This document shows, in pieces, positions 1 through 59,664 of a DNA stretch of 64,000 nt (the first letter of the stretch is position 1; the number at the start of each line of letters is the position of its first letter). Under the pieces are notes generated by a model. That model was not told the DNA's origin. It ran no database searches and was given only the letters and a program-made list of their open reading frames with translations. Source of the stretch: Nitrosopumilaceae archaeon (GTDB lineage: Archaea > Thermoproteota > Nitrososphaeria > Nitrososphaerales > Nitrosopumilaceae). The stretch lies in NCBI GenBank assembly GCA_965214835.1, contig CBDCCK010000002.1, positions 2,336,001 through 2,400,000 of the forward strand, given 5' to 3'. Both the position numbers and the translations under genes were made by a program.

Positions 1-537
1 GGCAGGCAGGATCGACGAGAGCTGCGTGTCAGGCTTTGCCATCAGGAACAGCAAATGCAGGACCTCGTCGTTTAGCCTGGTCATCGTGCCGTCTGCCATG
101 CACGGCAAAAAGGACAAGACTGTAGTGGAGCAGTACGTGGCATTTGCCACCAATCTCCCGTTCTCCAACGCGCTGCACGAGATCGATACTGCCTCGCAGG
201 ACTACCGGAAGAGGTGGGGAATAGAGACAGGATGCGTGCAGATAGAGCAGATACGGGCCAAGACCACGAGCAGGAACTAGGACATCAGGCTGCCTGTGTT
301 CTTTGTGCACCGCCGCCCGCGATTACGTTCTCGGCAGTCATCATCAGGAACTAGGACATCAGGCTGCCTGTGTTCTTTGTGTCTGTATTTGTGTACAACA
401 TGTGGGCCATCGAGCGCAACAGGGATGACATATGGTGTATGAAAAGGGATCTTACACTGTTGCGGATTGCATGTGTGCTTCTCATGGCTGCCAGAAGAAA
501 CCTTGCAGAATACGGGTTTGCCGGCCCGCCGCCGTAG
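1..537 (+). pseudogene. ISH3/IS4-family transposase C-terminal remnant
   Basis: FATN...YRKRWGIET...R.KTTSRN motif, similar to 47916-48224; broken by an in-frame TAG at 278 and a 74-bp duplication-plus-insert. Confidence 0.8.
271..381. repeat. 37-bp direct duplication around a 37-bp unique insert (unit A)
   Basis: caggaactaggacatcaggctgcctgtgttctttgtg at 271-307 and 345-381. Confidence 0.95.
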
Positions 538-620
538 GGCTGCGGTGGCTTTTGGGGGTTACATTTCCGTCTACTGGAATGTAGCAAAGGCAGAAATACA
601 CCCGTTTTTCAAGAAAAACC

Positions 621-998
621 ATGGATAAAGAGCTCCTAGAGCACATGAAGACGCTGTTTGGCCTGAATCCCGACGCGGTGCCGCCAGGATTACAGTTTCC
701 CAGACTGCCTCCCGGACTCATGCATCCGATGACCAGCCAATTTGCCGTCCCTCAAAGAAGGACTGCACAGGATGCTGCGTCCCTGACTCCCAGCTTGGAG
801 GAATTTCAGCAGGCCTATCAGAGACATGCGTCGGGACTGCTCAACTCGCACTATCCTGGGGTCGTACCTCCGGGACATCCGCTATATGAAAAACATGCAT
901 CCGCCAGTATCCTGAGATCTGAAAACGACAAGCTGTTAAAGGAAAACCTCGAGCTTAAAAAACAACTAGACGAGATGGCAAAGCCTGGATCCCACTAG
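621..998 (+). CDS. hypothetical protein with C-terminal coiled coil
   Basis: Clean 125-aa ATG ORF, Pro-rich middle, heptad ENDKLLKENLELKKQLDE. Confidence 0.75.
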   Translation: MDKELLEHMKTLFGLNPDAVPPGLQFPRLPPGLMHPMTSQFAVPQRRTAQDAASLTPSLEEFQQAYQRHASGLLNSHYPGVVPPGHPLYEKHASASILRSENDKLLKENLELKKQLDEMAKPGSH

Positions 999-1196
999 CC
1001 CTCAGTAGTCACTGTGAAATTTCATCTGTATCATCAGATAAATGAAAAGTACCCCAGCCAGGCAGAAAATCAAGGAATTTAGGCCATCTTGGCAACACTG
1101 CAGATGCAAACAGATCAATTGGGGTGGTGAGGATCCCTCTGGAATAGGAACGCTTTTTTTCGCACACTTTTTGAGTTAGGAGGTCGAATCACAGAT

Positions 1197-1487
1197 ATGA
1201 GCAAGAAAACATGGAGTGCGCAGGACAAGATAGAGATAGTCATGGAGCAGTTCAACACCAACATCGAGACGGCAGAGCTGTGCCGCCGTCACAGCCTCTC
1301 CCCTAGGACGTTTTATCAGTGGAGGGAGCGCTTTTTGCAGGCAGGATGCGCCTCGCTGTCGGGTAGAGGCCACAAGTCAACGGAGGAGCAACAGCAAAAG
1401 GAGATCGAGTCGCTCAAGAAAATAGTTGGGGAGTACGCCGTGGCCAATGCGGCATTAAAAAAAACCTTGGAGACAGGCAACAGGTGA
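1197..1487 (+). mobile_element. IS3-family OrfA (HTH), truncated element
   Basis: WSAQDKIEIV...AELCRRHSLSPRTFYQWR HTH plus leucine zipper; A8 slippery run near 1457-1464; no OrfB recognisable after the IS5 insertion. Confidence 0.75.
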
Positions 1488-1496
1488 CGGCCGCAG

Positions 1497-2581
1497 AGAA
1501 GCGATTCTTAATTAGCAGATTTTGACCCACTTGGGCACTAATCTATGCCTGACGGATCAAAATACCTGTAAAACCATGTACAAATCATGTGTTTGATCGA
1601 TAGACTGACAAAAAACCCACGGACGTTCCGGATGTTTGCAGGAATGACCGAGGCAGAGTTTGACCAGCTGTGTACCGAGGTGCAAAAGAAATTTCCAGAT
1701 ACCGAGAAGAAGAGGCTCTCAAGGCCCGACCGTGTGCGGGATATAGGCGCAGGCAGGCCCTTTGCCCTGGATCTGAGGAACCGCGTACTGCTGGTCTTGT
1801 TCTACTACAGGACGTACGTCTCCCAGGACGTGGCTGGCGCCATGTTCGGTATAGGACAGGCGTCGGTCTCGCGCTCCATAAGCCTGACTAAGCCCCTGCT
1901 AAAACAATGCCTGCCGATCCCCGAGAAGATTTACAAGGACTCCAAGAGGATCTCCTCAGTCGAGGAGCTGGCCGAGATCTTCCCGGGGATGGTGTGCCTG
2001 ACTGACGCCTCCGAGCAGCCCACAAACAGGCCCAAGAGAAAGGACATGGAAAAGTCGCACTATTCGGGCAAGGCAGGCACGCACACGGCCAAGGTCCAGT
2101 ATACGGTCAACATACACGGTGCCATAGTGCACAAGACCCCGCACTCGCCGGGGCGCGTAAACGACGTCAAGATATACCAGATGAAGCATCCCACGTTCTG
2201 GAGCGGTGAGGAGGACGGCGAGGAGCTGCGGCACTATATGGATCGCGGATACCAGGGTGCGCAGCACATCGATGCAGGGACGAAGGTTATACTTCCAATC
2301 AAGAAGAGTCCTGGCGGCAAGCTGACCGACGATGAAAAAGAGTACAACAGAACACACTCAAAGATACGGGTGTACGTGGAGAATGGCATACGCAGGGTCA
2401 AGACATTCAAGATAATGAGCTACAAGTACAGAAACAGGCTCAGAAAGTACGATCTGGCCAACAGTATCGTGTGCGGGCTGGTCAACCTGAGGATACTGGA
2501 ACGGATAGCTGCTGTGGCCTGAAAAACACGGCAGAAAACAACTGCAACCTGCCACTCGTAATTTAATTACGGATTGCTTCT
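1497..2581 (+). mobile_element. IS5-family element, copy 1 (transposase 1587-2522, 311 aa)
   Basis: TIRs agaagcgattc/ggattgcttct, 3-bp TSD cag; DDE motifs TDASEQ, MDRGY, RVYVENGI; nearly identical to 52575-53659. Confidence 0.93.
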
Positions 2582-3553: not shown

Positions 3554-4227
3554 AGATACTCGTGGCAGATTGACTCGCATTATCTCACGATTTCCAAAAA
3601 ACGAGACCAGGACACAGGGCCCCCGTCGGGGACTCCTGATCCCCACAACCTTCTGGGACGCCGGAGTCTTCCCAGCCCCTTATCTTTACCTGAGTGAAGA
3701 ATTCCCCCGCACCACATTGAATCAGACGACCGTCTTCGGACAGACAAGACAAAATCATGCCCGCGAGCTAGGAATCATTGCAATCAACCCCGTATGATTA
3801 ATTTTAAAATCATAGTATCATATCCGGAGGAATATCAAAAACATGACAGGAATCAAGAACATGAAAAACAGAGTTTATCAATTCTGAGGGTATTGACTAT
3901 TTCCCTTTCTATCCTGCCACGACATATAATACATCTCGGAATCTTTTGAGCCTTTTGATCACCAAAAGTCCATCATTTTTAACCCCTCATCGGATGTCAT
4001 CGGAATCATCTGAGAAGATTATCTTCCCTCGGGCAGGTTCGTGATCCCGCCGCCTGTGGTTGCAGGATGCCCCATAGGCAGAGTCCGCATCCCAGATAAA
4101 GCCATCCCGAGCATCAAGTAAAGCATGAAAGCGGAAAAACTCGGCTTTGAGCAGTGTCACACGTGGTCAAAGAACCCAGATGTCCACGATCCCCGCCGGC
4201 CTTGACGAACAAGAGGGGTGCGGGGCG

Positions 4228-5731: not shown

Positions 5732-7413
5732 GAAAAAGGGGGGCTAGCATACATTATATGATTTTATGCATGGTCGCAGCCAAGTGAAAAGTACCCCGAA
5801 ATCGGTAACAGCTCGGGCTCGGGAAGCTCAGGCGTGAATCTTGCCACCTTGGAGGCCCCCTTGGGCAGCACCCCAGGCTAGCAGGAAGATCTGAAAAAAT
5901 CACAACACATAAAGATCCCAGGATCTGCCTTCCGGGTATTGGTTGGGGATCCTGACATTACGGACGTGGACTGGAGAATTCCCGACGTGATCCGCCTGTT
6001 TGAACACATGAAGACAGGGGTGGATAATGTTGAAAAATACAACCAGCAGCTGCAAAAAGACAACGAGCAGCTGCAAGGCGAACACCAGCAGCAGTAGAAA
6101 GTGATCCAGCAGCAGCAAGAGGAAATCGAACGGCTAAGGGCACTGCTCGGCCAGTAGATACCGGCGTCCGGATCCGGGCCGGTGTGGGGTTCCGTTCCAA
6201 AGGAGGCCCGCAAAGAGCCGAACTCGCGCGGCTATAACGTGCGCAAGTTCCACGACTTTCCGCATCCTGAAAAGGCGGCCCCAAAAAAGAGGTTGGAGAC
6301 CAAGGCCGTCACCCGTACATGCACTGCAGACGCCGAGTTCTGCCCCGACTGCTGCAACAGGCTCTCTGACTGGTGCGAAAGGTACGCAAGGAAATCTGAG
6401 GATCTGGTCGACGGCAGGTGGACCGAGACGGAATGGGACGTCACCAAACGCTACTGCAAGTCATGCAAGAAAAAGCGCGCTGCCCCCGTGCCAGGCGTGC
6501 TACCAGGCGAGCATTACGGCACGCGCGTCATCGGGATAATCGTGTTTCTCCGCTGCATGTGTCTGTCCTTTGAGAGGATCCAGACCATACTGCACACGCT
6601 TTACGGCGCCCACATACCGGCGTCCACCCTGATCCACCTGTGTGATGTATCGACTACCAGGATGATGCCCGTATATGACGGCATTCTGGAGGAGATACGG
6701 CGCTCAGAGTCCGTCGGGGGTGATGAGACGGGCTGGTTTCTCAACGGGGCCGGCCACTGGGTATGGGTGCTTGTGACAAAATTCTCCGTATTCTACCACA
6801 TAGCGCCGTCCCGCTCGGGCGACGTCATAGATTCCCTGATGGCAACCTTTGACGGCATCGTGACATCCGACTCGTACTCGCCGTGGAACCGCATCGGCTG
6901 CATGCACCAAAAGTGCCTCCTGCACTACCTTCGGGACATGTACCTGACGCTGGAGAAGAACCCCGGCGCCGAGTTTGCCACGATGTTTTGCAGGCTCCGC
7001 GGCACCCTAAAGGACGCAATAGAGCTGGGCAGGGCCACGCCCGGGGAGGTGCAGTGCCTGAAATATCGCGTGCGCAAGCTTGCCTCGGCCGCGTACACGG
7101 ACGGGGACTGCATCCGGTATACAAAGCGCCTCAAAAGGGAGGTCGACGATCTGTTTACGTTCCTAGAGCATGACGTCGAGTACCACAACAACGGCAGCGA
7201 GAGGGCGCTGCGCATGATTGCCGTGATACGGAAGATCCTGTACGAAAACAGTAGTCAATTCATAAAAAAACGAACAATTTTGACAACTGCTTTTGATCCA
7301 AACATTAAGATCAGGCAAACCATCGCACATGCATGGGAAAACAGGCAGAATTTGTGGCATCTAGGGACAAATTCCTGGGCAAGCAAAGCACTCACGCCTT
7401 TGCAAGGCGTACT

Positions 7414-7534
7414 AGACCCGACAGTATGGAACACGACAGTTGTTGCTGCTGCAGTTAATTCGTGCATGTGGAGTTTGACATACTGCCACACAAGACCCGA
7501 CAGTATGGAACACGACAGTTGTTGCTGCTGCAGT
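7414..7534. repeat. 42-bp direct duplication around a 37-bp insert (unit B)
   Basis: agacccgacagtatggaacacgacagttgttgctgctgcagt at 7414-7455 and 7493-7534. Confidence 0.92.
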
Positions 7535-8674
7535 AGTCAGCCCATCAAATATCGGAACATCTTTACCGGTAGGATCTCTCCGCTGGTAAACAGATTCCGC
7601 ACGGACTGCTCCATCTCATCAAGCGTATCAAACACCTTGGCAGACAGCCTCCGCTTTATCTCCCTCCACTGTATCTCTACAGGATTGAGCTCCGGCGTGG
7701 ACGGCGGCAGGTACTCCAGTATTATCTCGCCCTTGTACTTTTCCAGCGTCTTCCTTACGCCGACAGACTTGTGGTATGACGCATTATCCAGGAATATCAA
7801 CACCTTTCCGTACTTTTCGTGCACCTTTTCCAAAAAGTCGCAAAAGCTGTTGGTGTTGGTCTTGTCATAGAACATATAGTAGAATATGTTAACTGCCAGC
7901 ACGCCGAACATGTACCGGCGCTGCCGTGACAGCGTCAAGGGCGCCGTGACGCTCATGCCGCGCCTGATCCACCCGTGTTTGGGGCTGTTTGAGGTCTTTT
8001 GTATGGATGACTCGTCTTCTGCCAGTACCGTATACCCTTGCGCCTCCTTTTCCCGTATCAGCTCCTGGGATGCCTCCTTGAACTCGTTCTGCTTTTGTTT
8101 TGAGACGGCCTTTGGGTTCTTGGGCCTCGGCTTCCTCCATGAGAACCCAAGCTCGCGTGCCAGCAGCCGCGTGCCGCTCTTGCTGTATTCTATGCCGAAC
8201 TTCTTTTTGATGTGCCGTCTCATCAGGCCCGAGTCCCACAGGCTGCTCTCAAAACCGCACTCCTCGGATCCTGACTTGAGATCCGCCGCAAGCTGTTTCA
8301 GCTGCGACTCACTCAGCTTGTGCTTGCGTCCCCTGCCTGGCCGCTCGTGCCTTGCACGTATTCCCTCGTCCTGTGCGCGGATGAGCCACTTGGATATGGT
8401 GGAATGTGCCCGGTCGAGGTTCTTTGCTATCTGTTCCACACCGAGGTCGTCCTTGCGCTGCATGTATGCAAGCAGCCTGTCGCGCTTTCTCTTGTCTGTC
8501 TCCTTTTTGTATGCCTTGTGCAGGTAGGAGCGTGACGTATTTGGCAGGAATTTGCTCCCTGATGCTACGAATTCCTTTCTCTGTCTGTCCATGCATATGC
8601 GCATTCCTTGCCTGATCTTAATGTTTGGATCAAAAATAGTTGTCAAAATTGTTCTTTTTTTTATATATTGACTA
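7534..8674 (-). mobile_element. IS630-family element (transposase 7537-8604)
   Basis: EDES / LDNASYH / STPELNPVE DDE motifs; tagtca...tgacta ends; a diverged second copy of its left end lies inverted at 7252-7413. Confidence 0.92.
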
Positions 8675-15036: not shown

Positions 15037-15080
15037 GATAAAACAACATCATAAGACTATGTTTTATTTAGTTCGTTTTG

Positions 15081-17454: not shown

Positions 17455-18552
17455 TAGTGAAGAGCATAAATCATCCAAATCAACTTTATCAAACCACAAT
17501 ACATTTTGATCGCCATGGCACACATTATTCATGACTCCAAAAGAAAAGGCCAAGTTCAGGGAGGCGCACAGGAAGGAAAAGGATCCCGCCGTCAAGCTCA
17601 GAATGACTGCAATAAACCTGATCCACATTGAGGAAAAGGACTCAAAGATTGTGGCAAAATATCTGGGACAGACACGCGACTGGGTCTACTTCTGGACGCG
17701 GCGCTTCAGGGAGGGCGGCATTGATGCCCTCCGGAACCGCCCACACACCGGCAGGCCGCCCAAGGTGAGTCCGGAGATCATCACCAAGATCATAGATGCG
17801 GCCGAGGACGGCATACTCACGCCAAAGAAGTTTCGCCTGGACATACACGACGAGACCGGCGTTTGGTACCACCACACCCACGTCAGGAGGTTGATGAGGG
17901 AGCAGAACATGTCGCCCAAGACGCCGGAGCTCGTGCACAGGAACAAGGCAGACGAGCAGACCATACGAAGGTGGCAGTGCAACGCAAAAAGGCAGATTTC
18001 ACGCCTGAAAAAGGAGGGTTTTGCCATCGTAATCCAGGACGAGTCGATCTTCGTCAATGATCCGGTGGTCGGACGCAAATACTGGTCCGCAGTCGGGGTG
18101 CCCATCACGATCCCGTACAACGGGAGCCACCGCAGGATTGTGGCCTACGGCGCGATTGCCACGGACGGACGCCGCTTCTTCCGGACATATGATAAATTTA
18201 ACGGCCCGACATTCCTCAGGTATCTCAAGGAGCTCCGCAATAACTTTGGAAAGGTCCTAGTAATAATGGACGGCGCGTCTGCGCACAAGACCCGGGATGT
18301 AAAAAAATTCGTGGCAGACAATCCGAACACCGTAAGGGTCAGGTACCTTCCGGTGGCCACCCCGGAGATCAGCCTCATAGAGGAGTTCTGGCACCAAGCA
18401 AAGCGGGACGTGCTGGTCTCCGAGTACTATGCAACAATCGAGGAGATGAGACATGCGCTGTCCGAATATCTGAGGACTGCCGGCTTCGACCACAGTGTCA
18501 TGGAGTATCTCGGAAACAAGCCCAAGATTTGAAGAATTTATGCTCTTCACTA
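17455..18552 (+). mobile_element. IS630-family element (transposase 17531-18532)
   Basis: TIR tagtgaagagcataaat, TA TSD, QDES/MDGASAH/PEISLIE. Confidence 0.95.
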
Positions 18553-18840
18553 TAGCATCCAACAGCACCAACCCCGCAATGGCGGGGATGGCACCAGACT
18601 CCATGATACACGACGCTCGCTTAGCTGGCGTGACTCACGTGGGTGAGAGTTCAGCAACAAAAAATACCTTTGCCCGGGCACTTGATGAGATGGTAACCAG
18701 CGATATCACCGTGGCACTTTCAATACTGGCAGATGAAGAAAGTTTTGGATGCAACGACTATTCTGCCCTTACCATTGTCACCGATAGGGCGGTACACGAA
18801 GGCTTGAGCTTTTCCATGGCCATCGGAAACAAACCAAGTA

Positions 18841-19946
18841 TAGCAACGGTCACAAGTAATTGAGGGCTTTGACCGGCGATCTGTAAATGTACTTGTACAT
18901 GCAAAGGTGGGCAAATGACACCGTCCTATAATATTCGGATATGGTGTGCCGCAGCTCGCTGATCCTTCTGTACACTATCCCCCTGAAAACAAAATGTTTG
19001 CCCAGGTTCCAGCATTCTTCCACGATATTGAGGTACGGCGATCCTTTCGGAATCATTATCAGCCTGACGTCGGGATGGCCCGCCAGATATTCTGCGACAT
19101 CAGTAGATCTGTGCACACTCCACCTATCGCAAAAGACTGCAACCTTGCCAAACTTGATGCGCAGCGCCTCCAGACATTCTATGAACTGCACCGACGTAAA
19201 CGATCCCGTAAACGTCCTGAATAGCCTTCTGCCGTCTTCTGCGATGCTTCCAAACACGGCCACCTTTGTGTGGTCCCCCGAATACGATGCCACGCTTCTG
19301 GTGCCGACCGGACCCCACACGTATCTGTCGTATGCGCCCTGCACGAAGAACGCCTCATCAGATGACACCAGCGTAAAACCGTCGTTTTTCAGGCACGGAA
19401 TCCGCACGTTTTCAAGGTATCGCTGCCACGAGTATACCGAGCTTGGGGTGGCATGGTTGACATGTATGTTTTGCACCTTGCGGCGCGACAGGCCGTGCTG
19501 GCACATCAGTCTTCGGACATGCTCTATGCTGTATTCTATCCCGGTGGCATTCCTTATGTCATCGCGTACCGTCATGACATCGGTACTTTTGCATGCAGTG
19601 GACAGATCCATTATGGCTGCAATACTTTCTCTGTCCACCTTTGGTCTGCATCCGGAACGGGGAAGATCCCGGAGACCGTCTATGCCGCCCTCCGAAAACC
19701 TCGCCAGCCAGTTGCGCACGGAATTCTCACTGCACCGGATCTTTCTTGCAGTCTCGGGTACGCCCATGTCGTCTTCTAGCACAAACATCAGCGCCATGAT
19801 CTTCTTGTAGACTTTGACATCCTTTTCTTTGCGCATGGCCTCTGACAGAATGTCTGTTTCTTTTGTCATACATACTGCGCCAGTTACGTGATCATTATAC
19901 CTTTCGAATGACCTTGTTTTGGCTCAAAGACTTATGCTCGTTGCTA
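18841..19946 (-). mobile_element. IS630-family element (transposase 18850-19869)
   Basis: TIR tagcaacg, TA TSD, SDEA/SPYLNIVE. Confidence 0.95.
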
Positions 19947-21309
19947 TAACACGGCGGCGTTCCCTCCACCACACATACAAAAGCTGGCATGCGGCTTTAA
20001 TTACATCAGCGCAGGTGCCGTGGACGAGGACAGAATCCTGTGGAGTGACAGTGTTCTAGGCCCTGCCCAGTTCAACACCCCGGGCGGCGACGCACCCAGA
20101 ATAAAGCCCGAGATAACCGCAATCGGCGTAGATCTTGATCTTGCACGGGCCGCAGATACTAGAAGTATGATAAACCGCGACTATGAAATAGACTCCGGTA
20201 CGAGCTTTGCCACCGCCTTTGTGGCAGGTGCCAGTGCCCTGATCCTAGAAAAGCAGCCGGACTACCGGCATCTGGAGATAAAGTCCGCACTGATGCTTGG
20301 CGCAGACTGGCAGGCAGACACGCCGGCGACGGCAGCAGACTATGATGACCGGAGGGCCGGGATATACGATACCATGAACCGGTACGGCTTTGGCATACTC
20401 AACGCAACGAGATCCCTTGACTATGCCAACGACAACCAGTACCCAAACGTCCTGTACGACCAAAGCTCAAGCGACTTTGAGGTAAATTCGTACAGGATAT
20501 ACGCAGGCGCAGGCGAGCAGGTAAAGGTGCTGCTGTCATGGCTGGTGCATCCGAGAGGCACGGTACTGTCGCCCACCCTTCCAATCGGCAGCCCGCACAT
20601 CCAGCTTCCAAGCCAGTACCACAACTATGACCTCGCGGTGACGCTTCCCAACGGCGTGACAAGGACAAGCGACTCTGACGTCCAGAACAACGAGTTTGTC
20701 GTGTTTGACGCACCAGAGACCGGATTCTACACCATCACCGTGAGCTCCGACGGGACGCTGACGACTGCCGTCGGCGAGCCGTACACCCTGGCAAGCACTC
20801 ACGGGATAGACAAGTTCCCATACGACCTCGTCGTCCCGGTCACGGAGTTCGCAGACGACTTTGAGTCGGACCTCTCAAAGTGGGACATCTCCGGCGACTC
20901 TGACTGGGAGACGGGGGACCCCGACGAGGACGTGCCCGGCGAGAACAGCCGGACAAACCAGGCGCTCATATCAAGCAACTGCGACATTGTCTGCATCGCC
21001 ACGATATCCTCGACGTTTGACACGCAGGACGCGCTGACCATCTCCTTTGACAGGTTCGTCGACTCCAACGTCGATGCCGGGGAGGGCCTGTTTGTAGAGT
21101 ACTCTGCAGACGGAACCAGCTGGACCGGCCTTGCAAGCTATACCCACGACAACCGCGAGGACAGCGACTCGTGGAGCAGTGAGTCCCTGTCCTTGGATAT
21201 AACGGATGACACCGCAATGATCAGGTTCGTGGCAAAGTCCAGCTCCTCAAGCGAGCATGTCGAGATAGACAATGTTGCAATAATGGAAAGTAACGGAGGC
21301 GGACCCTCG

Positions 21310-22700
21310 GACACGACTGACCCCGTAATCACCGTGCCCGCAGACGTCACGGCCGAGGCTACCGGCGTACTGAGTATGATATCCATAGGGCAGGCCACGG
21401 CCACCGACAACCTGGATCCCGACCCGGCAATCACAAACGACGCACCAGAGTCGTTTCCCCTAGGCAGCACGACAGTCACGTGGACTGCCACGGATGATTT
21501 CGGCAACACGGCCACTGACACCCAGACTGTTACGATACGGGACACGACGCCGCCCATGATCACGGTGCCTGCAGACCGTACCGCGGAGGCCGCCGGCGTA
21601 CAGACTGCCGTATCCATAGGGCAGGCCACTGCCACCGACATTGCAGATCCCGACCCGGCAATTACAAACGACGCACCCGCGTCGTTCCCGCTCGGCGATA
21701 CGGTAATCACATGGACTGCCACAGATGATTCGGGCAACGTGGCCACTGACACCCAGACTGTTACGGTTCAAGATACCACGCCGCCGAGCATCACGGTGCC
21801 TGCTGACCATACAGCAGAGGCCACCGGCGTGCTGACCACAATATCAATAGGGCAGGCTACGGCCACCGACAACCTGGATCCCGATCCTGTCATCACGCAC
21901 GACGCACCGGAATCGTTCCCGCTAGGCAGCACGACAGTCACGTGGACTGCCACGGATGACTTTGGCAACACAGCGACTGCCACCCAGACTGTTACGATAC
22001 AGGACACGACACTGCCGAGCATAACCGCACCACCAGATGTCACAACCGAGGCCACCGGCGTGCTGACTGTAACATCCATAGGGCAGGCCACCGCCACCGA
22101 CAACCTGGATCCCGACCCGGCAATCACAAACGACGCACCGGAATCGTTCCCGCTCGGCGACACCATAGTGACATGGACTGCCACTGATTCCTCCGGCAAT
22201 GCTGCCACGGCCACACAGACCGTGACGATACAGGACACCACGCCGCCGAGCATCACAGCACCCGCCGATCATACGGCCGAGGCTGCCGGCATCATGACAA
22301 TCCTGAATGCCGGCGACTATGGGACTCCCGCCGTGTCTGACATTGCCGATCCCAGCCCCACAATCACAAACGACGCACCGGAATCGTTCCCGCTCGGCAA
22401 CACCACGGTAACGTGGACTGCCGCCGACTCTTCGGGCAATGCCGCCACGGCCACACAGACCGTGACGATACAGGACACCACGCCGCCTGCCATATCCGGC
22501 CTGCGCAACATAAACGTGGATGATCCGGCGGGCCGGGGAATGGAAGTCAGCTATGATGCGCCTACAGCTACAGACCTCGTGGACGGGGTCGTGGCAGTAT
22601 CGTGCACGCACGAGTCGGGATCGACGTTTGCGCCCGGATTCACCGAGGTGTCATGTATGGCGACAGACGGCTCTGCAAACTCGCTGCGGGACTGGTTTAT
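21310..22700 (+). repeat. about six HYR-like tandem domain repeats (about 231 bp)
   Basis: Repeated DTTPPxIT.P.D...FPLG.T.VTWTATD.SGN units. Confidence 0.9.
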
Positions 22701-24349
22701 CATACACGTGGACGCATCTGACGCCATCCTGGACGTCTCGCAGACCGTGAGCACGGGCCGGTCCACGTGGAGTGTCACGGGCCCCGACAGGATATTCGCG
22801 GGGCAGACCTTCGAGTATACCGTAACCCTCGAGGACGGGGCGAGGCCCAGGGAGGAGGCCCTTGCCGTGTACAGCGCTGCGCCGGATACGCGGTACCTCG
22901 GATGGCATGATCCCGATGCAGACTGCCAGACTATATTGTGCGCGGGGTTTCCCGAACAAAAGCACAACACGTACAAGATAGCCAGTGACGAGGACTCGCC
23001 GTATACTGCCATGCACAACAAGATGAAAAAGTCCAGATCCAGCCACACCATACTACTGCAGCCGGCAGCCGACGCGCCGGCGGGGGCGCAGGCCACAGTC
23101 GGCATGCTGGACGCCAGCTACAATCCTGTGGGAGGCATACCGGTAACGGTACTGCCGCCGTCCACGAGGACGGTAACGGACGGGGACACCACCTGGAGGA
23201 TCACGGGCCCCGACAGGATATTTCCGGGACAGACATTCGAGTATACCGTGACCCTTGATGGCACAAGGCACCAACACGACGCCCTTGCCATATACAGCGA
23301 CTCGCTTACGGTGGACGACTTTGGGGGACTCGCGGATGACTCTGCATGCGGCACGACCGTATGCACGGACTTTCCGGGGCAGCGGCGCCGCACGATGGAG
23401 CTTGACAACCACGCAGGCTCGGTATACGACGTGAGGTACCACACGATCAACGCGCCCGGCTCCCAGTATACGATACTGCTGAGGACCGCCGACGACGCAG
23501 ACGCGGGAGGCGCGTTCAGGGTAGGCCTGGTGGACGGGGACGGGATCCCCATTGGCGGCATACGGGTCACGATCGCCGATCCCGTGGCTGTAACGGGCCC
23601 CTATGAGGAGCTCGTGGCGGGCCTGTCCTTTGAGGGCAGCTTGGCAGATGCGACGGGGGACAACAACGGCACGGCGGCCACAGGGGATGCCACGTACGTG
23701 CCTGGCAGGATAGGCAGGGGGCTGCAGCTTGACAACTCCTCTCATGTAGTCCTTGCAGAAGAGGCCGACTTTGACTTTGGGCGGAGCGACCCGTTCAGCA
23801 TGGCGTTCTGGCTCAGGCAGGATGTGCCTCAGACTGCCAGGTCCATGATCCTCTCCAAGGCAGAGTCGTTTGGCCGTCCTGGCGCATACGTGTTTGTGTG
23901 GGACGGGGCGCCCAACAGGGTCCTGCTCCTGCTGTATGGAAACTCTTCTTTCATAAACGTGCACACACCGCAACACCTGAACATGTCAGACGGCGCCTGG
24001 CACCACATGGCATTCACGTACGACGGCTCGGGCGCCAAGGAGGGCCTCAACGTATACGTGGACGGCGAACACCGGGACTATGACCACTTCCGCAGGGGCG
24101 CGGGGCTGACAGGCAACATGACAAACGACCATGCGTTTACCATAGGGGCATCCGGCCTGGGGGAGCACGGCATATCCGATGCGGCACTTGACGAGCTGCG
24201 CGTGTACGATACCGAGCTGTTGGCCCGGCAGGTGCGGCTGCTGCATGCGGCAGGCCTAGGCTAGCCTGTGCGATCACGGTGGGCCCAGCCTGCGACAGGA
24301 GTTCGTACCGGCCGGTAAGGATTCTCAAAGTACTTCATGATCAGACACC

Positions 24350-24460
24350 CCTGCAAACGGACGATGACATTGAAGGATTTGTGACAAACTAGGAAGGCGA
24401 CGGGGTACGGCAAAAACGAGTGATCCTGCAAACGGACGATGACATTGAAGGATTTGTGAC
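24350..24460. repeat. 36-bp direct duplication around a 39-bp insert (unit C)
   Basis: cctgcaaacggacgatgacattgaaggatttgtgac at 24350-24385 and 24425-24460. Confidence 0.95.
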
Positions 24461-24785
24461 TGCCGGCATAATGCCCCACAGGCGGCACTGCCTGCCGGGG
24501 CCATACCGCGCGGAATGCGCGGCAGCAATCTTCTGGAGGCGATAGACTCTTGCCTCTTATCGTGTATTGCTGCGCAATACCTAAATCAGGCGTAAGGTTC
24601 AATCATCGGAACGCAAAAAGGATGTATCTTACTATCTAGGAATGAAAATCACAGTCGCATGTAAAACCGTGCCTGATTAGTTAAGGGGGAAAACTTCCAT
24701 ATCAAATTATTCTGGTTCCCGGGGGGTACCGCTCAAATATTGGATCCTTGGTAGCAAAATTCATAACTGAATTACCAGAGCTAGA

Positions 24786-33061: not shown

Positions 33062-33133
33062 AGCCTCTGTCATATTCTGAACGCCCCGGGGGGGTGTGTA
33101 ACTAGCACGGTTTTTATTCCATCCTGCATCATA
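33026..33133. repeat. 37-bp direct duplication around a 34-bp insert (unit E)
   Basis: tgtaactagcacggtttttattccatcctgcatcata at 33026-33062 and 33097-33133. Confidence 0.95.
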
Positions 33134-33184
33134 TGACTGCCTCCGTTTACACTCATTAAGTTTAGGATGCATGCAGTTCTGACT

Positions 33185-33313
33185 GGGGTTGTCGCCTAAT
33201 TCCACTTGTTTGACTCAACCTGCACGTTTTTCTGAATTTCCGCCCTTTTGCACGCCTGATCCACTGGCATCACAGCGGTTTTCAGGAATTCTGGCGAATT
33301 AGGCGACAACCCC
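33185..33313. mobile_element. 129-bp IS5-derived MITE
   Basis: TIR ggggttgtcgcctaattc; 9-bp TSD gttctgact. Confidence 0.92.
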
Positions 33314-36544: not shown

Positions 36545-39500
36545 CTATGTGCCACCTACGCCCAAGGAGTCCGATAGGCCATCCTCAAACCCAAGGTGCA
36601 CTAGGAGTGCCCCGTCATAGTCTCCCATACAAGTATGTTCGACGGCGGTTTCTGTGTCTTCGTCGGCCAGTACAGCCATCTCCACATGGCACTCGTGAGC
36701 GGCCGACACGTAGCTGGCAGGCAGCAGTGCCGAATATATCATGACATCATCCAGTACGGTGTCCTGCGCAGGCCCGCCGCCGATGCTGTTGGCGTCTATC
36801 TTAAGCAGATACTCGTTTGCAGCGTATTCTGACAGTAACATGACATGCTTGCCCCGCCTGTCGATCTGTCCGTCCACGTACACGTCGAGTCCGCCGCTGC
36901 TCCCGGAGCCGTCATAGGTGAACACGACGTGGTGCCAGCGGCCGTCGGCCACGCTGGAGAACGTACTGGTGCCTATCTGATCCTGCGCGTTGTCAGTCAT
37001 CATGAGTGAGATCCCGCCGCCGGGGCGGTTCCACACGGTGATACCTTGATGCATGTCCGCATCGTCCTTTGATATGATCGACGAGTCCGGGTCTCCCAGA
37101 CCCGTATTTTTGATCCAGAACGCAATGCTGAACGGATCGTCCACGCCAAGATCGAGGACTGGCGCAGTGGCAAGTGTGATATGTGCAGTATCATCAAGAT
37201 CCAGTGCTCGGCCGGCCGGGCCATACGTGGATAAGGAGGCCCACCCGGGAGGGTTCCATTCCCTTACCTCCACACTGCGATCGACATGCGGGATGACTAC
37301 TGATGGTATCAGTATGTCCGGTTTGGGGGCGTTCTCAAACTCGGCCACCCTGTTGCCGCCGTTGTATATCTCCGAATACCGTCGTATCCAATCCGTTTCT
37401 AGAGACGCTGTCGCATTGTCGCCGCCGCGACTGGTCTCCATCTTGTTCATCTGCCTGTGGTTTCTGTCATTATAATCTACTATTACGATCTTTTTGGTTT
37501 TTTGCGGTTGTGCGGTATGTTTGCCAAAGAAGTCATATACAACCATGCCAGAATCGGTAAGATTGTAGGCCTGCGGCAGCCACGATTCGTGAAACTGTAA
37601 CATGATTATTCCCGCCTCAGAGTCCGCATAGTTTTGCAGCGTAAAGGATACTGCTTCAGAGTACACGGATGTCACGTCCCAGTGCACAAGCACGCCCGAC
37701 GTGGACAGGCCGAGTGCCGCGATCACAAGCACAGCAGCCAGCAGCAGTGTGCGCTGCCCGCTTGAACCCAACCGTCCCGCGGATGCCCTTTCGATTCCGC
37801 TGCCGATCAGTGCGGCGGCGGCAATGCACATCGCAGTCCACAGCATTCCTAGGTGGGAGTACGATACGTATCGTAATAGGTTAGCCCCTGCCTAGTTGAT
37901 TTTTTCTGACCACCTGATCTATAAACTATCATTACCCGGGAAATACATGCCTACAGCCTCGGAATTCAAGGAACTATGCAATGAGCTTGCCCGCGAAAAA
38001 GCGGAACTTCAGAAGGAGCAGAAGGAACATCAGAGGACGCAAGGCAAGCTTCAGAAGGAGCAGAAGGAACATCAGAGGACGCAAGGCAAGCTTCAGAAGG
38101 AGCAGAAGGAACATCAGAGGACGCAAGGCAAGCTTCAGAAGGAGCAGAAGGAACATCAGAGGACACGGGAGGAGCTTGCCGCTGAGAAGGCGGGACGCAA
38201 ATCTGACAATGCCGTCTCTGCCGCGCAAATCGCGACGCAGACAGCACAAATCAAGCAGTTCAAACAACGCATCACATATTATGAGAACCCGCACAGCCCC
38301 TCCTCGCAGAACTCGATTCCGACCAGGCAGAAAAAGGCAGCAGCCGCGGCAGGGGCATCTGGAAGGGCACCTACAAGGCCGGGCCGCAGGCCCGGACACG
38401 AGGGCATATCACACAGGAGAACACCGACCCGGGAAATGAACCACGTGCCTGACATGTGCGGCGCGTGCAACGGGCGCGACCTGACAGATCCGGTTCCCGC
38501 CGGAACTAGGATGGCTACTGACATTCCAGAGATCCCAGAGCCGGTCACGACACAGCACTACTTTACCCGCCGCAAGTGCCGCAAGTGCGGCGCCATCACC
38601 ACGACAAACGGGGGCGGGCTGGTCGTTCCGGGCACCGAGTTTGGACCCAACATTGCCTCCTATATCGGCACCCTGTACACCATGCCGGCATCCGTCGGCT
38701 CGATCAGGCGCATCGTAAAGGAGATCTTTAAAATTGATGTAAGCAAGGCGATGATACAGAACTGCCTCAAGACCGTTACAAAGAAGCTTGATCCGTGCGT
38801 GGAGGACATCAAAAAAGACATTGCAGGATGCGACCACGTCCACATGGACGAGACGGGGATGCCATACGACGGCAAGAGCGGCTACATGTGGGTGGCAGTG
38901 GGCGTCAAGGACGGCAATGCCGTCGGCGCGCACATGGTGGCAACTGACAGCAGGAGGGCATCCGTACTGGATGAGCACTTTTCATACGTGCCCAGAGTCG
39001 GGGTGACTGACGGATACCCCGGATACGACAAGTTCTTTGGCAGGAACAGGCAGCGGTGCTGGGCCCACATAATCCGGGAGGCAGACGCCCAAAGCGAGAA
39101 AACGGACTCCCCGGAGGTTCGCGCCGCAGGCGAGCGCCTCAAGTGGCAGATGCATTGCGCCAAGGGGCCGGGGCCGCCGGAGGAGGCTGCCAGGCAGCAC
39201 GACAGTCGGGTGGCAGAAACACGCGAGATTGCCGCCACATACAGGAAGGAAGGATGTGACAGCTGTGCCACAAAGATTGACAACGCCTCGGAGTTTCTCT
39301 ACACGTTTACGACGCGTCCTGGGATGGATCCCACCAACAACCTGGCAGAGCGCACGCTGAGGCCCGGCGTGATCGCGCGCAAGATACGGTTCGGACTGCG
39401 GACAAAAGACGGACAGAAGATGTTCGGTAACATGTTGACGTGCATCGAGACATGGCGCCTCCGGGGGTGCAACGTTACGGACATGATCAGGGACGCGCTG

Positions 39501-40702
39501 GTCAGAAACCCCGGGTACGTGGTCGTCTGCCCCTAGCAATCCTGCACTAATCTGCCTGCAGTTGTGATTTTCATGCCTGAAAAGACGGTGGGTGTGACTT
39601 TAACTCTAGGCAGGGGCTAACCTATTACTACGTATCCTATTGATCCGAAGAACAATGAGACAGGTACAAACCACAGCACAAGAAATCTGTTGCGCACGGC
39701 CAGCGCAAAAGCGAGCCCTGCCGTACCCAGCGACACCATGACAGGATCTGTCGCGAACACCTGCACCACGGCCCACAGCATGATCGCAGGATGTGTCAAT
39801 ATGTCAGGATCCTGGTCTTGGTGCAGGGCCACCTGCGTGTGCATCTGCATCTCGTTCAGCATGCTTTGACCGTCCCTGTCGGCCTGCCACAGGACGCCGT
39901 TTACCCATCCATCAAAGTCACCTGTCAGCGCAGCAGCCGCGGGCCATGCTGCCGCAATAATGATTACAGACGCAAGCCACAACAGCAGCATCCGCCCCGG
40001 CCTCCTACCGATCGACCATACCAAGGCGAGGACTAGTGGGATCATGACAAGCGAGGGGATCTTGACAAGCATGGCACATCCCATGCAGGCGCCAGATAGA
40101 AGAACCATCAAGCGCGTCTTGTCTGGGGTCTGCGGTAGCAGCTCCCCCCCTCCCCTCCTCACTTGGAACGGGCCGCGTGCGTACATTGCAAGCAGAACGG
40201 AAGACAGGACAAACGGAAGGAAAATCGAGTCCAGCAGAACCAGCCTGAGCGTCAGCGATAAGGGCATTGTCGCAAACAGGACAGCTGCGATCGGCGCGGC
40301 CCTGCGCCCGAATCCCCTCTCGGCTATCTTGTATATCAAAAAGGTGTCCAGAACTGCAAGCAGGCCCATGAGGATGCGCGGTGCCCCATATAGCATCCCA
40401 AGCGAGGACGTATCCTCCGGTGTGACAAAGGAGTCTGGGTACCCTGTGGCATGAAAGAATCCTGCCAGTATCGTCCAGCCAAGGAAAGGGTGGTCGTGCT
40501 TGTCTACCAGCATCTTGTGATGATCCAGGACGTCCAGGGCCCGGTCTATGTAGACTCCCTCATCTATTTCCCACTGTGGAAATCCTGCAGGGTTCCACAG
40601 GTGCGTATACGCAGAAAGCGACAGTATGACTGCAAGCAGGAGGAGATGCTCGTGTCCTGACAGACAGCCTGTGCGAAAAATGGCATGTCTGAGGCCAAGC
40701 AT
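36545..40702 (-). pseudogene. ArnT/PMT-like GT-C membrane glycosyltransferase with C-terminal LamG domain, split by IS66
   Basis: IDEGVY, DHPFLG, many TMs; LamG WHHVVFTYDG; halves join in frame across TSD tacgtatc. Confidence 0.88.
37873..39628 (+). mobile_element. IS66-family element, intact single-ORF transposase
   Basis: Perfect TIR gtaataggttagcccctgcctag; 8-bp TSD tacgtatc; HMDETG, TDGY, QRCWAH, PTNNLAER. Confidence 0.96.
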
Positions 40703-55094: not shown

Positions 55095-56809
55095 GTAATA
55101 GGTTAGCCCCTGCCTAGTTGATTTTTTCTGACCACCTGATCTATAAACTATCATTACCCGGGAAATACATGCCTACAGCCTCGGAATTCAAGGAACTATG
55201 CAATGAGCTTGCCCGCGAAAAAGCGGAACTTCAGAAGGAGCAGAAGGAACATCAGAGGACGCAAGGCAAGCTTCAGAAGGAGCAGAAGGAACATCAGAGG
55301 ACGCAAGGCAAGCTTCAGAAGGAGCAGAAGGAACATCAGAGGACACGGGAGGAGCTTGCCGCTGAGAAGGCGGGACGCAAATCTGACAATGCCGTCTCTG
55401 CCGCGCAAATCGCGACGCAGACAGCACAAATCAAGCAGTTCAAACAACGCATCACATATTATGAGAACCCGCACAGCCCCTCCTCGCAGAACTCGATTCC
55501 GACCAGGCAGAAAAAGGCAGCAGCCGCGGCAGGGGCATCTGGAAGGGCACCTACAAGGCCGGGCCGCAGGCCCGGACACGAGGGCATATCACACAGGAGA
55601 ACACCGACCCGGGAAATGAACCACGTGCCTGACATGTGCGGCGCGTGCAACGGGCGCGACCTGACAGATCCGGTTCCCGCCGGAACTAGGATGGCTACTG
55701 ACATTCCAGAGATCCCAGAGCCGGTCACGACACAGCACTACTTTACCCGCCGCAAGTGCCGCAAGTGCGGCGCCATCACCACGACAAACGGGGGGCGGGC
55801 TGGTCGTTCCGGGCACCGAGTTTGGACCCAACATTGCCTCCTATATCGGCACCCTGTACACCATGCCGGCATCCGTCGGCTCGATCAGGCGCATCGTAAA
55901 GGAGATCTTTAAAATTGATGTAAGCAAGGCGATGATACAGAACTGCCTCAAGACCGTTACAAAGAAGCTTGATCCGTGCGTGGAGGACATCAAAAAAGAC
56001 ATTGCAGGATGCGACCACGTCCACATGGACGAGACGGGGATGCCATACGACGGCAAGAGCGGCTACATGTGGGTGGCAGTGGGAGTCAAGGACGGCAATG
56101 CCGTCGGCGCGCACATGGTGGCAACTGACAGCAGGAGGGCATCCGTACTGGATGAGCACTTTTCATACGTGCCCAGAGTCGGGGTGACTGACGGATACCC
56201 CGGATACGACAAGTTCTTTGGCAGGAACAGGCAGCGGTGCTGGGCCCACATAATCCGGGAGGCAGATGCCCAAAGCGAGAAAACGGACTCCCCGGAGGTT
56301 CGCGCCGCAGGCGAGCGCCTCAAGTGGCAGATGCATTGCGCCAAGGGGCCGGGGCCGCCGGAGGAGGCTGCCAGGCAGCACGACAGTCGGGTGGCAGAAA
56401 CACGCGAGATTGCCGCCACATACAGGAAGGAAGGATGTGACAGCTGTGCCACAAAGATTGACAACGCCTCGGAGTTTCTCTACACGTTTACGACGCGTCC
56501 TAGGATGGATCCCACCAACAACCTGGCAGAGCGCACGCTGAGGCCCGGCGTGATCGCGCGCAAGATACGGTTCGGACTGCGGACAAAAGACGGACAGAAG
56601 ATGTTCGGTAACATGTTGACGTGCATCGAGACATGGCGCCTCCGGGGGTGCAACGTTACGGACATGATCAGGGACGCGCTGGTCAGAAACCCCGGGTACG
56701 TGGTCGTCTGCCCCTAGCAATCCTGCACTAATCTGCCTGCAGTTGTGATTTTCATGCCTGAAAAGACGGTGGGTGTGACTTTAACTCTAGGCAGGGGCTA
56801 ACCTATTAC
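55095..56809 (+). mobile_element. IS66-family element, copy of 37873-39628, frameshifted
   Basis: TSD ctggcact; one fewer 42-bp repeat; G6 instead of G5 at 55790-55795. Confidence 0.95.
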
Positions 56810-57137: not shown

Positions 57138-57331
57138 CATCCTTTACAACTCCCCTCAAATTGGTGCGACCTAATTTTCGTACAATACATTTCATGTGTG
57201 GCTGGCCAAAGACGTCCCGTTCTGCGTCTGAAACTGCCCACATTTAGGGGGCAGACGGGCAGTCTGTGGGAAAAATTGGGCAGCCACACCTTTGGGGCAA
57301 GTCTTATTACTTTCAAGAGGTGGCTGTTGTC

Positions 57332-57718: not shown

Positions 57719-57719
57719 A

Positions 57720-58040
57720 AAGTGTGGATTGGGGGGTCCTGTATGACAAATACAAGGATGCTCAGCTGGGCACCGATAAGATTGAGGGGGAGATACAGAA
57801 ATTGATTCTGGATGATGATGTGACCAAGAAGAGTGGGGTTTGCCCGTATATCCTCACGTGAGATGAAAAACATCTCTCAATCCGTGTATTTACGGAAGAT
57901 ATGAAGCAGAAATCCTACACATTACAGAATGGCAAATGCAGGAATTGTGATGAATGTTTTGACAGATCTGATATGGAGGCAGACCACATCATACCTTGCC
58001 AAAGGCAGAAGAGCAACCGTAGAAAACTGTCAGATGCTTT
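57720..58040 (+). pseudogene. HNH endonuclease C-terminal remnant
   Basis: QNGKCRNC...MEADHIIP...ENCQMLCK across frameshifts. Confidence 0.65.
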
Positions 58041-58348
58041 GTAAAGCATCTTGAACAGGCGCGCAAAAAGTGGGGAGAGGTTCTGATGGTGATGGACAAC
58101 GCAATACAGCACAAGACCGGCAAAGTTTGCAGATACCTAAAGAAAAATCCCAGCGTTGTCTTGCTGTACCTGCAGGTGGCAGACCGGAGCTGAGCGCCAT
58201 AGAGACAGTCTGGAAGGATGCCAAGTACAGGCTGGTCACATCTGTCTTTTACGACACGCTAGAGCACCTCAAAGAGGCCGTTTTGGAATACTTTAGGACG
58301 CGTTCCATCGAGGTTGACATCTACAAATATCTTGAGCGCAGCGTGTGA
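58041..58348 (+). pseudogene. IS630 transposase C-terminal remnant
   Basis: RPELSAIETVWKDAK. Confidence 0.75.
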
Positions 58349-58424
58349 GGAAGGCGAAATTTTCAATGATCATCAGCATAGGCTAATGTGCCTGCTGCTA
58401 GATGAGGAATTAACAAAAAAGTCT

Positions 58425-58531
58425 GTAACAGGCTGGGCTCTGGAAGTTCAGGCATGAATTTTACTGCCAGAGACCCTCGCAGATGTAATTCGTGTCTAAA
58501 ATCGTAAATCACTTCGAGTCCGAGCTGTTAC
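58425..58531. mobile_element. MITE with GTAACAG ends
   Basis: TIRs plus near-TSD aaaagtct/aaaaatct. Confidence 0.85.
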
Positions 58532-58558
58532 AAAAATCTTAACTTCATATGCAGTCTT

Positions 58559-59664
58559 TGTTTCATGTGAAAATTAGTTCCGCCCCTCATTAGTATCCTT
58601 TTCCATCCATTTGGGGTCGCTTTTCCTGATCGCTTCTGTGGCCTCCCGGCTCCGGAACGCCATCCTAGGCGTCTTGGCACGCCCCATATCCGGCGACCAG
58701 TGCGTCCTGCGCTCGTTGTAGAACTCGATGAACTCGTCGATGCTCTAAGTGCGTCAGCTCCCTCTCAAGCGTCCCAAACTACCTCTCCAGCTTGCCGTTG
58801 GTCTGGGGGTGATGCGGACGCGAGTTGAGCAGGACGATGTTGTGCTCCAGTAGTTCGTTCTCAAACAGCGTGGGCGTCCAGCTGCCCCGGGGGGTGCCGC
58901 GCCTGGTAGACGTAAAGCAGCTGTCGTTGTCAGAGAGTATCTGGGCCGTCGTCCCGAATTGCCTGATGGCATTGCGCAGCACTAGGCCCGGTGCAATTTC
59001 CCCGCTGTCCAGTCTGCCGGCGTCCCGAATTGCCTGATGGCATTGCGCAGCACCAGGACTGCGTTCTCCGAGGTCGCGTGCTCAAAGACGCCGAATCCGG
59101 TTATGCACCGCGAGGAGTCGTCAAGATATGCCTGCCAGGTTGAGCTTTTCTAGGCGTGGATCCTTCATTTCGTGTCAGTATGTGTGCCACATTGCGTTTG
59201 AGTACCTGCGCTCGTAGCGCAGCCATTTGAGCTGCCTGGATCTTCCGGGCGAGCTGTCCGTGATTCCCTCGGCCTTCATGATCCTGTATACTGCATGATA
59301 GCTTGTCTGCCTGCCTGCGGCCCTCATGCGCAATGCCAGCCGCTCTGCACCCGACGGCATCTGTGTATATGCATCAAGGACCGCCTTCACATCCCCGGGA
59401 TCCGTGTCCACGCCGGGCCTTCCTGCCCCGCTCCGTGGCAGGATCGTGCCGGAGCTGCGGAACCTGGCCCATATCTTCCTGACGTACCTGTCGCTGATGC
59501 CCAGCTCCCGGGCTATCTGCCTTGCAGACACGCCCTTTTTCCTCTGCCTTTCTATGTACCTGAGCGACTTTTCCTCCAGTCTTTTCCTCGCATTTTTTGA
59601 TCGGTACAGCCTGAAATAATCCCAAGTACGCCTGATTAGGCGGAACTAATTTTCGTATGATAGA
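58559..59664 (-). mobile_element. IS481-family element, pseudogenised
   Basis: TIR gaaaattagttccgcc; 15-bp flanking direct repeat ttcatatgcagtctt; homologous to 12012-12908. Confidence 0.9.
58950..59057. repeat. 37-bp duplication (1 mismatch) around a 34-bp insert (unit F)
   Basis: cgtcccgaattgcctgatggcattgcgcagcacYagg at 58950-58986 and 59021-59057. Confidence 0.93.

Follow-up and report, generated by a model that had tools for sequence, protein, structure and literature searches.

Duplications of native repeat length around spacer-sized inserts in an archaeal chromosome: probable off-target integration by a type I-G Cas4/Cas1-Cas2 module

Results

Repeat-insert-repeat units in the window

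Six loci in a stretch of 64,000 nucleotides from a Nitrosopumilaceae archaeon (assembly GCA_965214835.1, contig CBDCCK010000002.1) carry a segment of local sequence directly duplicated around a short insert, and the relation of these units to the type I-G CRISPR (short palindromic repeats, clustered and regularly interspaced) system of the same chromosome is the subject of this report. The stretch, called the window throughout, is G000:C2:2336001-2400000, C2 being the 3.2-Mb chromosome of the analysed genome, G000. Positions without a prefix are those of the window, and those preceded by C2 are chromosomal. A sequence-only reading of the window had listed the six loci, and all of them were re-detected at the same positions (the period is the offset between the two copies):

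Unit A: copies 271-307 and 345-381 (37 nt, 100% identical); insert 308-344 (37 nt); period 74
Unit B: copies 7411-7455 and 7490-7534 (45 nt, 98% identical, 1 mismatch, 42 nt exact); period 79
Unit C: copies 24350-24385 and 24425-24460 (36 nt, 100% identical); insert 24386-24424 (39 nt); period 75
Unit D: copies 30624-30663 and 30696-30735 (40 nt, 98% identical), of which 37 nt are exact (30624-30660 and 30696-30732); insert 30661-30695 (35 nt); period 72
Unit E: copies 33026-33062 and 33097-33133 (37 nt, 100% identical); insert 33063-33096 (34 nt); period 71
Unit F: copies 58945-58986 and 59016-59057 (42 nt, 95% identical, 33 nt exact); period 71
Unit F core: copies about 58950-58986 and 59021-59057 (37 nt, 1 mismatch); insert about 58987-59020 (34 nt)

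Several gene labels given by the sequence-only reading proved incorrect. Two of the host genes that it named, a sulfotransferase for unit D and an epimerase for unit E, were confirmed. The sulfotransferase gene (30453-31502, + strand; PF00685, domain at amino acids (aa) 96-302) gains 24 aa in frame in its N-terminal part, ahead of the domain, its frame being 351 aa long with the unit and 327 aa without it. Unit E is located 5' in a gene for an NAD-dependent epimerase (32066-33205, - strand; PF01370), the domain of which starts from aa 57 of the long frame and hence within copy 1. The duplicated segment, as read from the sequence, contains ATG ATG together with the opening codons of the Rossmann N-terminus, and because the start codon region is duplicated the gene is probably intact and probably survives the insertion. 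Units A, C and F are situated in decayed sequence. For unit A, whose period of 74 gives a frameshift, the earlier label of ISH3 transposase could not be confirmed, as its flanking frames matched no Pfam family; no protein family was matched at unit C, and unit F lies in a decayed rve/IS481-like transposase remnant with a weak match to PF00665 (E 0.0087). Unit B is found inside a transposase frame of the IS66 family of insertion sequences (IS) (6182-7870, PF03050).

A chromosome-wide length peak

The chromosome was scanned for direct repeats at offsets 30-160, with a 24-nt exact seed and mismatch-tolerant extension, and both CRISPR arrays, together with loci having several close repeats, were removed. 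This left 146 solo two-copy repeats, 55 of them with a period of 68-80. Among the 55, duplication lengths peaked at 36 nt (15 cases) and 37 nt (11), with three cases at 38 and two at 39, and insert lengths peaked at the same values (15 at 36 nt, 10 at 37 nt), whereas all other 118 offsets combined gave only nine duplications of 33-40 nt. The pattern greatly exceeds what chance would produce. The genome-wide length peak expected by the sequence-only reading is present and sharp, at 36-37 bp for duplication and insert alike. Its estimate of one unit per 10 kb does not extend beyond the window, which is a local cluster; across the whole genome, a unit occurs about once in 80 kb.

A duplication of 33-40 nt together with a period of 69-77 was taken to define a unit, which gave 40 units, 39 of them unique; unit B was left out of this count. 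Of the 39, 37 show no difference between their two copies, and the inserts measure 33-42 nt. The duplication lengths are consistent with a fixed 36 nt plus chance extension.

A type I-G module with matching repeat and spacer lengths

A Cas4/1-Cas2 locus with a long CRISPR array lies some 80 kb past the window's end:

C2:2480012-2481712: cas4/1, coding for a 566-aa Cas4g/Cas1g fusion
C2:2482178-2492955: native array, 148 repeats of 36 nt and 147 spacers of 35-40 nt

A search of the whole genome returned one match to Cas1 and one to Cas2, and no second copy of either was found anywhere in G000. The Cas1 is the fusion protein, which matches NF049935 over positions 2-546 of 546 with 754.8 bits and contains both the Pfam Cas4 and the Pfam Cas1 domain. 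The genes are arranged in an unusual order, cas4/1, cas2, the array, an IS630 transposase and then cas3g-cas8g-cas7g-csb2; Cas3g, Cas7g and Csb2 score above their cut-offs, and Cas8g2, at 100.8 bits, below its cut-off of 125. Judged by these genes, the locus is a type I-G CRISPR-Cas system. The host is an archaeon, with archaeal ribosomal proteins encoded just upstream of cas4/1 and with PolD and Orc1/Cdc6 present.

The periods of the array are distributed as 71 (7 cases), 72 (45), 73 (54), 74 (18), 75 (16) and 76 (4), and those of the 37 core solo units as 71 (1), 72 (15), 73 (9), 74 (4), 75 (6) and 76 (2). Both distributions have their modes at 72-73 and range from 71 to 76, so that the duplicated segments are as long as a native repeat and the lengths of the inserts track those of the native spacers.

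A target-site duplication around an insert is a transposon-like structure, and the units could be supposed to be a family of tiny transposons, resembling miniature inverted-repeat transposable elements, that makes a 36-bp target duplication. This is highly unlikely, since the inserts follow the lengths of the array spacers and share no sequence. Similarity among the 39 inserts is limited to two non-self matches of 11 and 20 nt, which are at chance level, and none of the 39 has a terminal inverted repeat longer than 2 nt; neither a shared motif at the insert ends nor a transposase binding them was observed. No match was found either between any of them and any array spacer.

The surroundings of the module were also recorded. 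Archaeal ribosomal genes L3, L4, L22, S3, L14, L24, S4e, L5 and L6, followed by cas4/1-cas2, lie on the same strand at C2:2470878-2481712 (L001:8878-17394, 18012-19712), with a gap of 618 bp between the L6 gene and the module, and read-through from the ribosomal cluster could raise expression of the integrase. In the relative G004 the cas4/1-cas2 module is found in a different gene neighbourhood. A second, small array at C2:135821-136368 has eight variant repeats in the opposite orientation and is degenerate.

Donors of the inserts and their flanking motif

When the 39 inserts were compared with the genome by BLAST, 13 matched elsewhere in G000. Two of these matches are second copies of a whole unit, and the remaining 11 inserts have a genomic donor, matched over 28-38 nt at 97-100%. 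A protospacer-adjacent motif (PAM), TTC or TTG, is exactly adjacent at seven of the 11 donors, one base off at two and absent at two; TTN is expected by chance on either side of a random 36-mer at a rate of 0.12, which gives a binomial p of 7.8e-5 for seven of 11. The insert of unit F, for instance, is a copy of C2:904372-904409 (32 of 33 aligned bases identical), where TTC lies one base off the copied segment, about 3 kb from orc1/cdc6. For the insert of unit A there is no donor within its own genome and there were 0 exact matches in viral_contigs, and for that of unit D there were 0 exact matches in metagenome_contigs; both were exact-match scans, from which records of G000 itself may be left out. 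According to the available part of one study, type I-G (formerly I-U) Cas4/1 picks 36-bp spacers with an upstream TTN PAM (PMC6547450).

The one array spacer with a known target, spacer 41, matches the 13-kb contig C1 perfectly at 6366-6401, with TTC on the 5' side. This target is carried by a resident contig and coexists with its spacer, from which it follows that interference may be inactive at present; a copy of IS630 lies between the array and cas3g.

Chromosome-derived sequence accounts for 11 of the 39 solo inserts and for none of the 147 array spacers (Fisher p 9.8e-9). Such a difference is expected if a self spacer kills its host from within a functional array but does no harm in places that yield no CRISPR RNA (crRNA). 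The donors cluster: three of the 11 fall at 902-906 kb and one more at 917 kb, close to the only orc1/cdc6 gene (900127-901338), which is flanked by both PolD subunits and contains the maximum of the cumulative GC skew, at 900498. One further donor source is an IS family with 11 matches at E <= 1e-6. In Pyrococcus furiosus, as described in the available text of one report, most spacers newly acquired in naive adaptation are chromosomal, with hot spots at oriC and at active transposase genes (PMC5737086). The donor sources of the stray units, the origin region and IS copies, match this hot-spot pattern.

Some other integrase might have made the units, be it a casposase, a solo Cas1 or an enzyme since lost. 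Casposons employ a Cas1-family integrase that makes a staggered cut and duplicates its target, as in the units described here, but they are kilobase-sized elements with terminal inverted repeats, genes of their own and short duplications of 14-15 bp, unlike the unrelated inserts of 33-42 nt, and this counts against a casposase. The acting enzyme cannot be proved from sequence, and some units, such as the family of unit B, are old. We nevertheless consider another enzyme distinctly unlikely, because the only Cas1 homologue of the genome is intact and because duplication length, insert length and PAM all agree with this I-G system (cf. the available part of PMC6547450).

Empty sites and effects on host genes

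Uninterrupted paralogous sites, with one copy of the segment and no insert, were found for 21 of the 39 units, and several of these empty paralogues are 99% identical over 336 nt without gaps. The 21 include five of the six units of the window: unit A has a single-copy site at C2:2597637-2597972 (89% over 336 nt, gap-free), unit C at C2:3190918-3191142 (89.5%, one gap), unit D at C2:1844814-1845087 (86%, gap-free) and unit E at C2:1842503-1842742 (86%), and unit F has 14 such sites with identities of about 91%. For one more unit the comparators are orthologues. It lies in a unique gene, that of an HtrA-like protease (C2:3127396-3128625), which encodes VAVDEEIIKAG-NETVAKINTTEQ-VAVDEEIIKAG; the orthologues in G001, G003 and G004 have one segment of the VAVDEEIIKAG type, and the 23-aa insertion is absent from them. 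The other 17 units have no comparator, and no orthologue match to the gene at C2:203465-204913 was obtained in 12 relatives.

These sites bear on the possibility that about 72 nt were duplicated in tandem, or by slippage, and that the middle has since diverged. Processes of this kind do occur once a unit exists: three loci have the form repeat-spacer-repeat-spacer-repeat with the same spacer, which points to unequal recombination or slippage between unit copies. As an origin of the units themselves, a decayed duplication is highly improbable, since the copies are identical in nearly all units and the inserts are unlike their flanks, since 11 inserts are exact or near-exact copies of distant loci, most of these with a PAM beside the copied segment, and since the paralogues and orthologues are single-copy and insert-free.

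The sequence-only reading had also suggested that the units seed new arrays. A third repeat copy, looked for at offsets 138-156, was found only as protein-coding 156-nt repeats or as the three same-spacer triplets, and outside the two arrays no locus has three repeats separated by two different spacers. No unit has gained a second, different spacer, so that nothing shows the seeding of new arrays.

Among the 14 units located in frames of at least 200 aa, nine keep the frame, and many are near the 5' end of the gene. Periods divisible by 3 make up 21 of 37 in the solo units vs 62 of 147 in the array (Fisher p 0.14, not significant), and these figures are suggestive only of selection for in-frame insertions.

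Unit B differs from the rest. Its 562-aa host frame is open only when the unit is present; the filled form occurs in four identical IS copies and six diverged paralogues (74-79% identity), and the empty form in three other paralogues (76-78%). Unit B may go back to an older event of the same kind that transposition then multiplied, or it may be a feature belonging to the IS itself.

Target choice and location of the units

The duplicated segments do not resemble the native repeat. Scored by in-register identity, taking the best of several shifts on both strands, they share on average 13.3 of 36 positions with it, compared with 13.1 at 4000 random sites (p 0.34), and repeat-likeness was rejected as a targeting rule. 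The same result bears on the idea that the units are remnants of former arrays whose repeats have decayed. A small degenerate array does exist elsewhere in the chromosome, the second one described above, but the duplicated segments are parts of host genes or IS copies that have single-copy paralogues or orthologues, and with repeat-likeness at the random level we give this idea almost no credence.

An orientation-free search for a motif at the junctions gave 5.03 bits; the 40 random sets gave 3.17 +/- 0.19 and all stayed below the observed value. The sequence-only reading had proposed a motif G(G/T)AAC(T)AG; the junction signal recovered here, weak and confined to one flank, is C-A-G-G|G. In the native array, the leader sequence just ahead of repeat 1 is ACGGG.

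The units are unevenly distributed, with 10 of the 39 lying within 150 kb upstream of the cas locus vs 1.8 expected (Poisson p 2e-5, for an interval chosen after seeing the data). The region of this cluster also holds the GC-skew minimum, at C2:2358514 (window 22514), so that proximity to the cas genes and proximity to the terminus are inseparable here; the window may be located in the replication terminus region. Repeat density was considered and rejected as a sufficient cause of the cluster: the fraction of multi-copy 25-mers is 0.24 there and 0.18 genome-wide, and windows richer in repeats hold 0-3 units.

Units in related genomes

In the congener G003, which has a repeat of the same family and a Cas4/1 that is 58% identical and carries one in-frame stop, the 78-kb CRISPR contig holds two clean units (37/35 and 39/33 nt, duplication and insert). 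The 1.19 Mb examined elsewhere yielded two likely units plus a doubtful candidate. Neither insert on the CRISPR contig has another copy in G003. One G003 candidate (G003:C1:421176-421290, L078; 41/33 nt, period 74) is found some 80-200 nt upstream of the orthologue of the protease gene mentioned above, which may be due to chance or to a shared hot spot. The presence of units in G003 indicates that the process recurs in the lineage, with G000 as its extreme case. In G004, whose Cas4/1 is 65% identical and whose 36-nt repeat is closely similar, at most one candidate unit was found in 400 kb around the cas locus. A module of the active type can therefore be accompanied by few units, and the module alone does not predict many; any reason for their number in G000 is one that we infer. 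The parts examined were about 1.26 of 2.3 Mb of G003 and 0.4 of 4.3 Mb of G004.

Sequencing reads

Reads were represented by four runs from two studies, as de Bruijn contigs (Logan), with 32 contig pieces listed; the assembly may itself derive from one of these studies. The units could be imagined to be artefacts of assembly, arising for example from gap closing or graph loops, because their periods (71-76) come close to usual short-read lengths and no unit is bridged by any of the 32 contig pieces listed. The breaks themselves are informative. Contigs of the three runs of the second study (X3, X4 and X5) end at 33055, 29 nt into copy 1 of unit E counted from its start, and begin at 30703, 29 nt short of the point where copy 2 of unit D ends. 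The word size of the contig graph is 31, and breaks 29 nt into the copies are what a genuine 37-nt repeat is expected to give in a graph of 31-mers; this lends weak support to the units being real. Furthermore, artefactual units would not come with PAM-flanked donors or in-frame protein insertions, would not match the native repeat in length and would not recur as the same structures in a second genome; we regard an artefact as most improbable.

Two further observations came from these contigs. A joint from 24385 to 24471 with seven letters between, present in all four runs, was rejected as an empty allele of unit C and, given that likeness was set at 90%, is most likely its paralogue. The alignment of one X1 contig begins only where copy 2 of unit D starts, its 82 preceding letters being unplaced.

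Discussion

Proposed ectopic integration of spacers

We propose, with a probability of roughly 0.9, that the units are the product of ectopic spacer integration by the resident type I-G Cas4/Cas1 fusion and Cas2, for which catalysis on non-CRISPR DNA is predicted from the sequence data. Cas4/1-Cas2 would capture a prespacer of about 36 nt beside a TTN PAM, in many cases from the host chromosome. The complex normally attacks the leader-proximal repeat at both of its ends. In the units it would instead attack ordinary DNA at two phosphodiesters, one on each strand and about 36 bp from each other, with the stagger set by the integrase's own ruler, and gap repair would then duplicate the 36 bp on both sides of the insert. 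Because the flanks are not CRISPR repeats, the inserts should not become crRNA, and this would explain why self-derived inserts persist in the stray units and none is found in the real array.

The core idea of the sequence-only reading, a Cas1-type integrase acting at non-CRISPR sites with a ruler-measured duplication, is supported by these results. Apart from the length peak, the evidence it pointed to has been obtained: a single intact Cas4/Cas1-Cas2 accompanied by repeats and spacers of the right lengths, genomic donors for 11 of 39 inserts with an exact TTN at seven, and empty alleles, as paralogues for 21 of 39 units and as orthologues in three relatives for one.

A number of observations weigh against ectopic integration. 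Unit B fits poorly, with its duplication of 42-45 nt, its period of 79 and the dependence of the reading frame on its presence. Two of the 11 donors have no PAM and in two others it is shifted by one base, 26 of the 39 inserts have no match elsewhere in the genome, and the inserts of units A and D lack exact matches in viral_contigs and metagenome_contigs, respectively. The targets are no more repeat-like than random sites, whereas the off-target sites of Pyrococcus furiosus in vitro share repeat features, according to the available part of the report (PMC6698737), and the orientation of the junction motif agrees with that defined by the PAM in only five of nine units. To these must be added the near absence of units around the cas locus of G004 and the lack of a bridging piece among the listed contigs.

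Relation to known systems

Off-target integration by E. coli Cas1-Cas2, giving rise to 'neo-CRISPR' loci, has been described by Nivala, Shipman and Church 2018 (as cited in the available parts of 10.1101/148544, PMC7054753 and PMC6698737). In the portion of the citing preprint that was available, the natural evidence is called only circumstantial and concerns two other species (10.1101/148544). The units described here are alike in that a spacer outside an array is bordered by duplicated host DNA of repeat length, forming repeat-spacer-repeat. The E. coli loci, as far as these sources describe them, arose in the laboratory from overproduced type I-E proteins, whereas here about 40 events are fixed in a wild archaeon with an I-G Cas4/1, many of the inserts come from the host itself and have a PAM beside the donor, and none of the units has acquired a second spacer. 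In vitro, P. furiosus Cas1 and Cas2 alone make full-site integrations, some of them in non-CRISPR DNA, which resembles the present case; the off-target sites in the available text share features of the repeat, in contrast with the targets of the units, which are unlike the repeat and show a weak junction motif only (PMC6698737).

The I-G systems of Geobacter sulfurreducens and Methanosarcina barkeri, to judge by the available text, are similar to that of G000 in their Cas4-Cas1 fusion, a predominant spacer length of 36 bp and an upstream TTN PAM, and there the PAM end adjoins the leader-proximal repeat, as it does with array spacer 41 here (PMC6547450, PMC10274657). The available parts of these two reports describe integration at the leader-repeat junction only. 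Ectopic acquisition in CRISPR3 of Streptococcus thermophilus also places spacers away from the leader-proximal repeat, but those events, in the text available, use a genuine repeat within the array, whereas the units are in arbitrary chromosomal DNA (PMC7999890).

Literature searches returned no report of a wild genome with dozens of off-target integrations, although subscription journals were mostly outside the search, so that such a report may still exist. Laboratory work has established the mechanism; what appears new here is the system type, with an I-G Cas4/1, the domain of life and the natural scale, together with targets that are unlike the repeat. We put forward more tentatively, and with rather less than even confidence, a joint reading in which the units are a natural and unfiltered record of adaptation that shows a strict 36-bp ruler without repeat likeness and a bias to the neighbourhood of the cas locus, and in which the module acts as an endogenous mutagen that writes in-frame insertions of 23-25 aa and seeds tandem repeats of 71-74 bp, a combination unseen in wild genomes.

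The units make it possible to examine on natural data how often adaptation samples the host itself, with at least 11 of 39 inserts being self-derived compared with 0 of 147 spacers in the array, and this same comparison provides a direct view of selection against autoimmunity. They also bear on the sources of prespacers, such as the origin region and IS copies, and on what the integrase needs in a target. Furthermore, they make a cost of CRISPR adaptation visible, insertional mutagenesis of its own host, and some of the events may be neutral or creative, in the form of in-frame peptide insertions or minisatellite seeds. A simple screen for other genomes is suggested, in which solo duplications of the native repeat length are sought around inserts of spacer length.

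Other repeats and neighbouring genes

Several further repeats were recorded in the window:

61758-62222: perfect 75-nt tandem repeat, 6.2 copies, in a 217-aa frame (61605-62258, - strand)
37896-39536 and 55118-56717: gene-sized element in two copies, both with a perfect 42-nt tandem repeat (3.8 copies at 38007-38164, 2.8 copies at 55229-55344)
21352-22487: 231-nt repeat, 4.9 copies, 77% identity, in a 1414-aa frame (20020-24264)

The period of the 75-nt repeat is within the range of the units, but its total length does not fit n x 75 + 36. Outside the window, the L24 frame of the ribosomal cluster (C2:2475820-2477028, L001:13820-15028) is 402 aa long and has a long tail of 66-75-nt repeats (C2:2476210-2476820). 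A candidate small array at C2:34441-35722 was rejected, since it consists of 13 copies of a perfect 22-nt palindrome at irregular spacings of 72-253 nt; no other cluster of this sort occurs in the genome, the units have no relation to it, and the palindromes may be iterons or origin-like binding sites. Just past the cas genes, a 552-aa frame (C2:2506760-2508418, L003:4760-6418) gives weak TIR-domain matches to anti-phage proteins and may mark a defence island.

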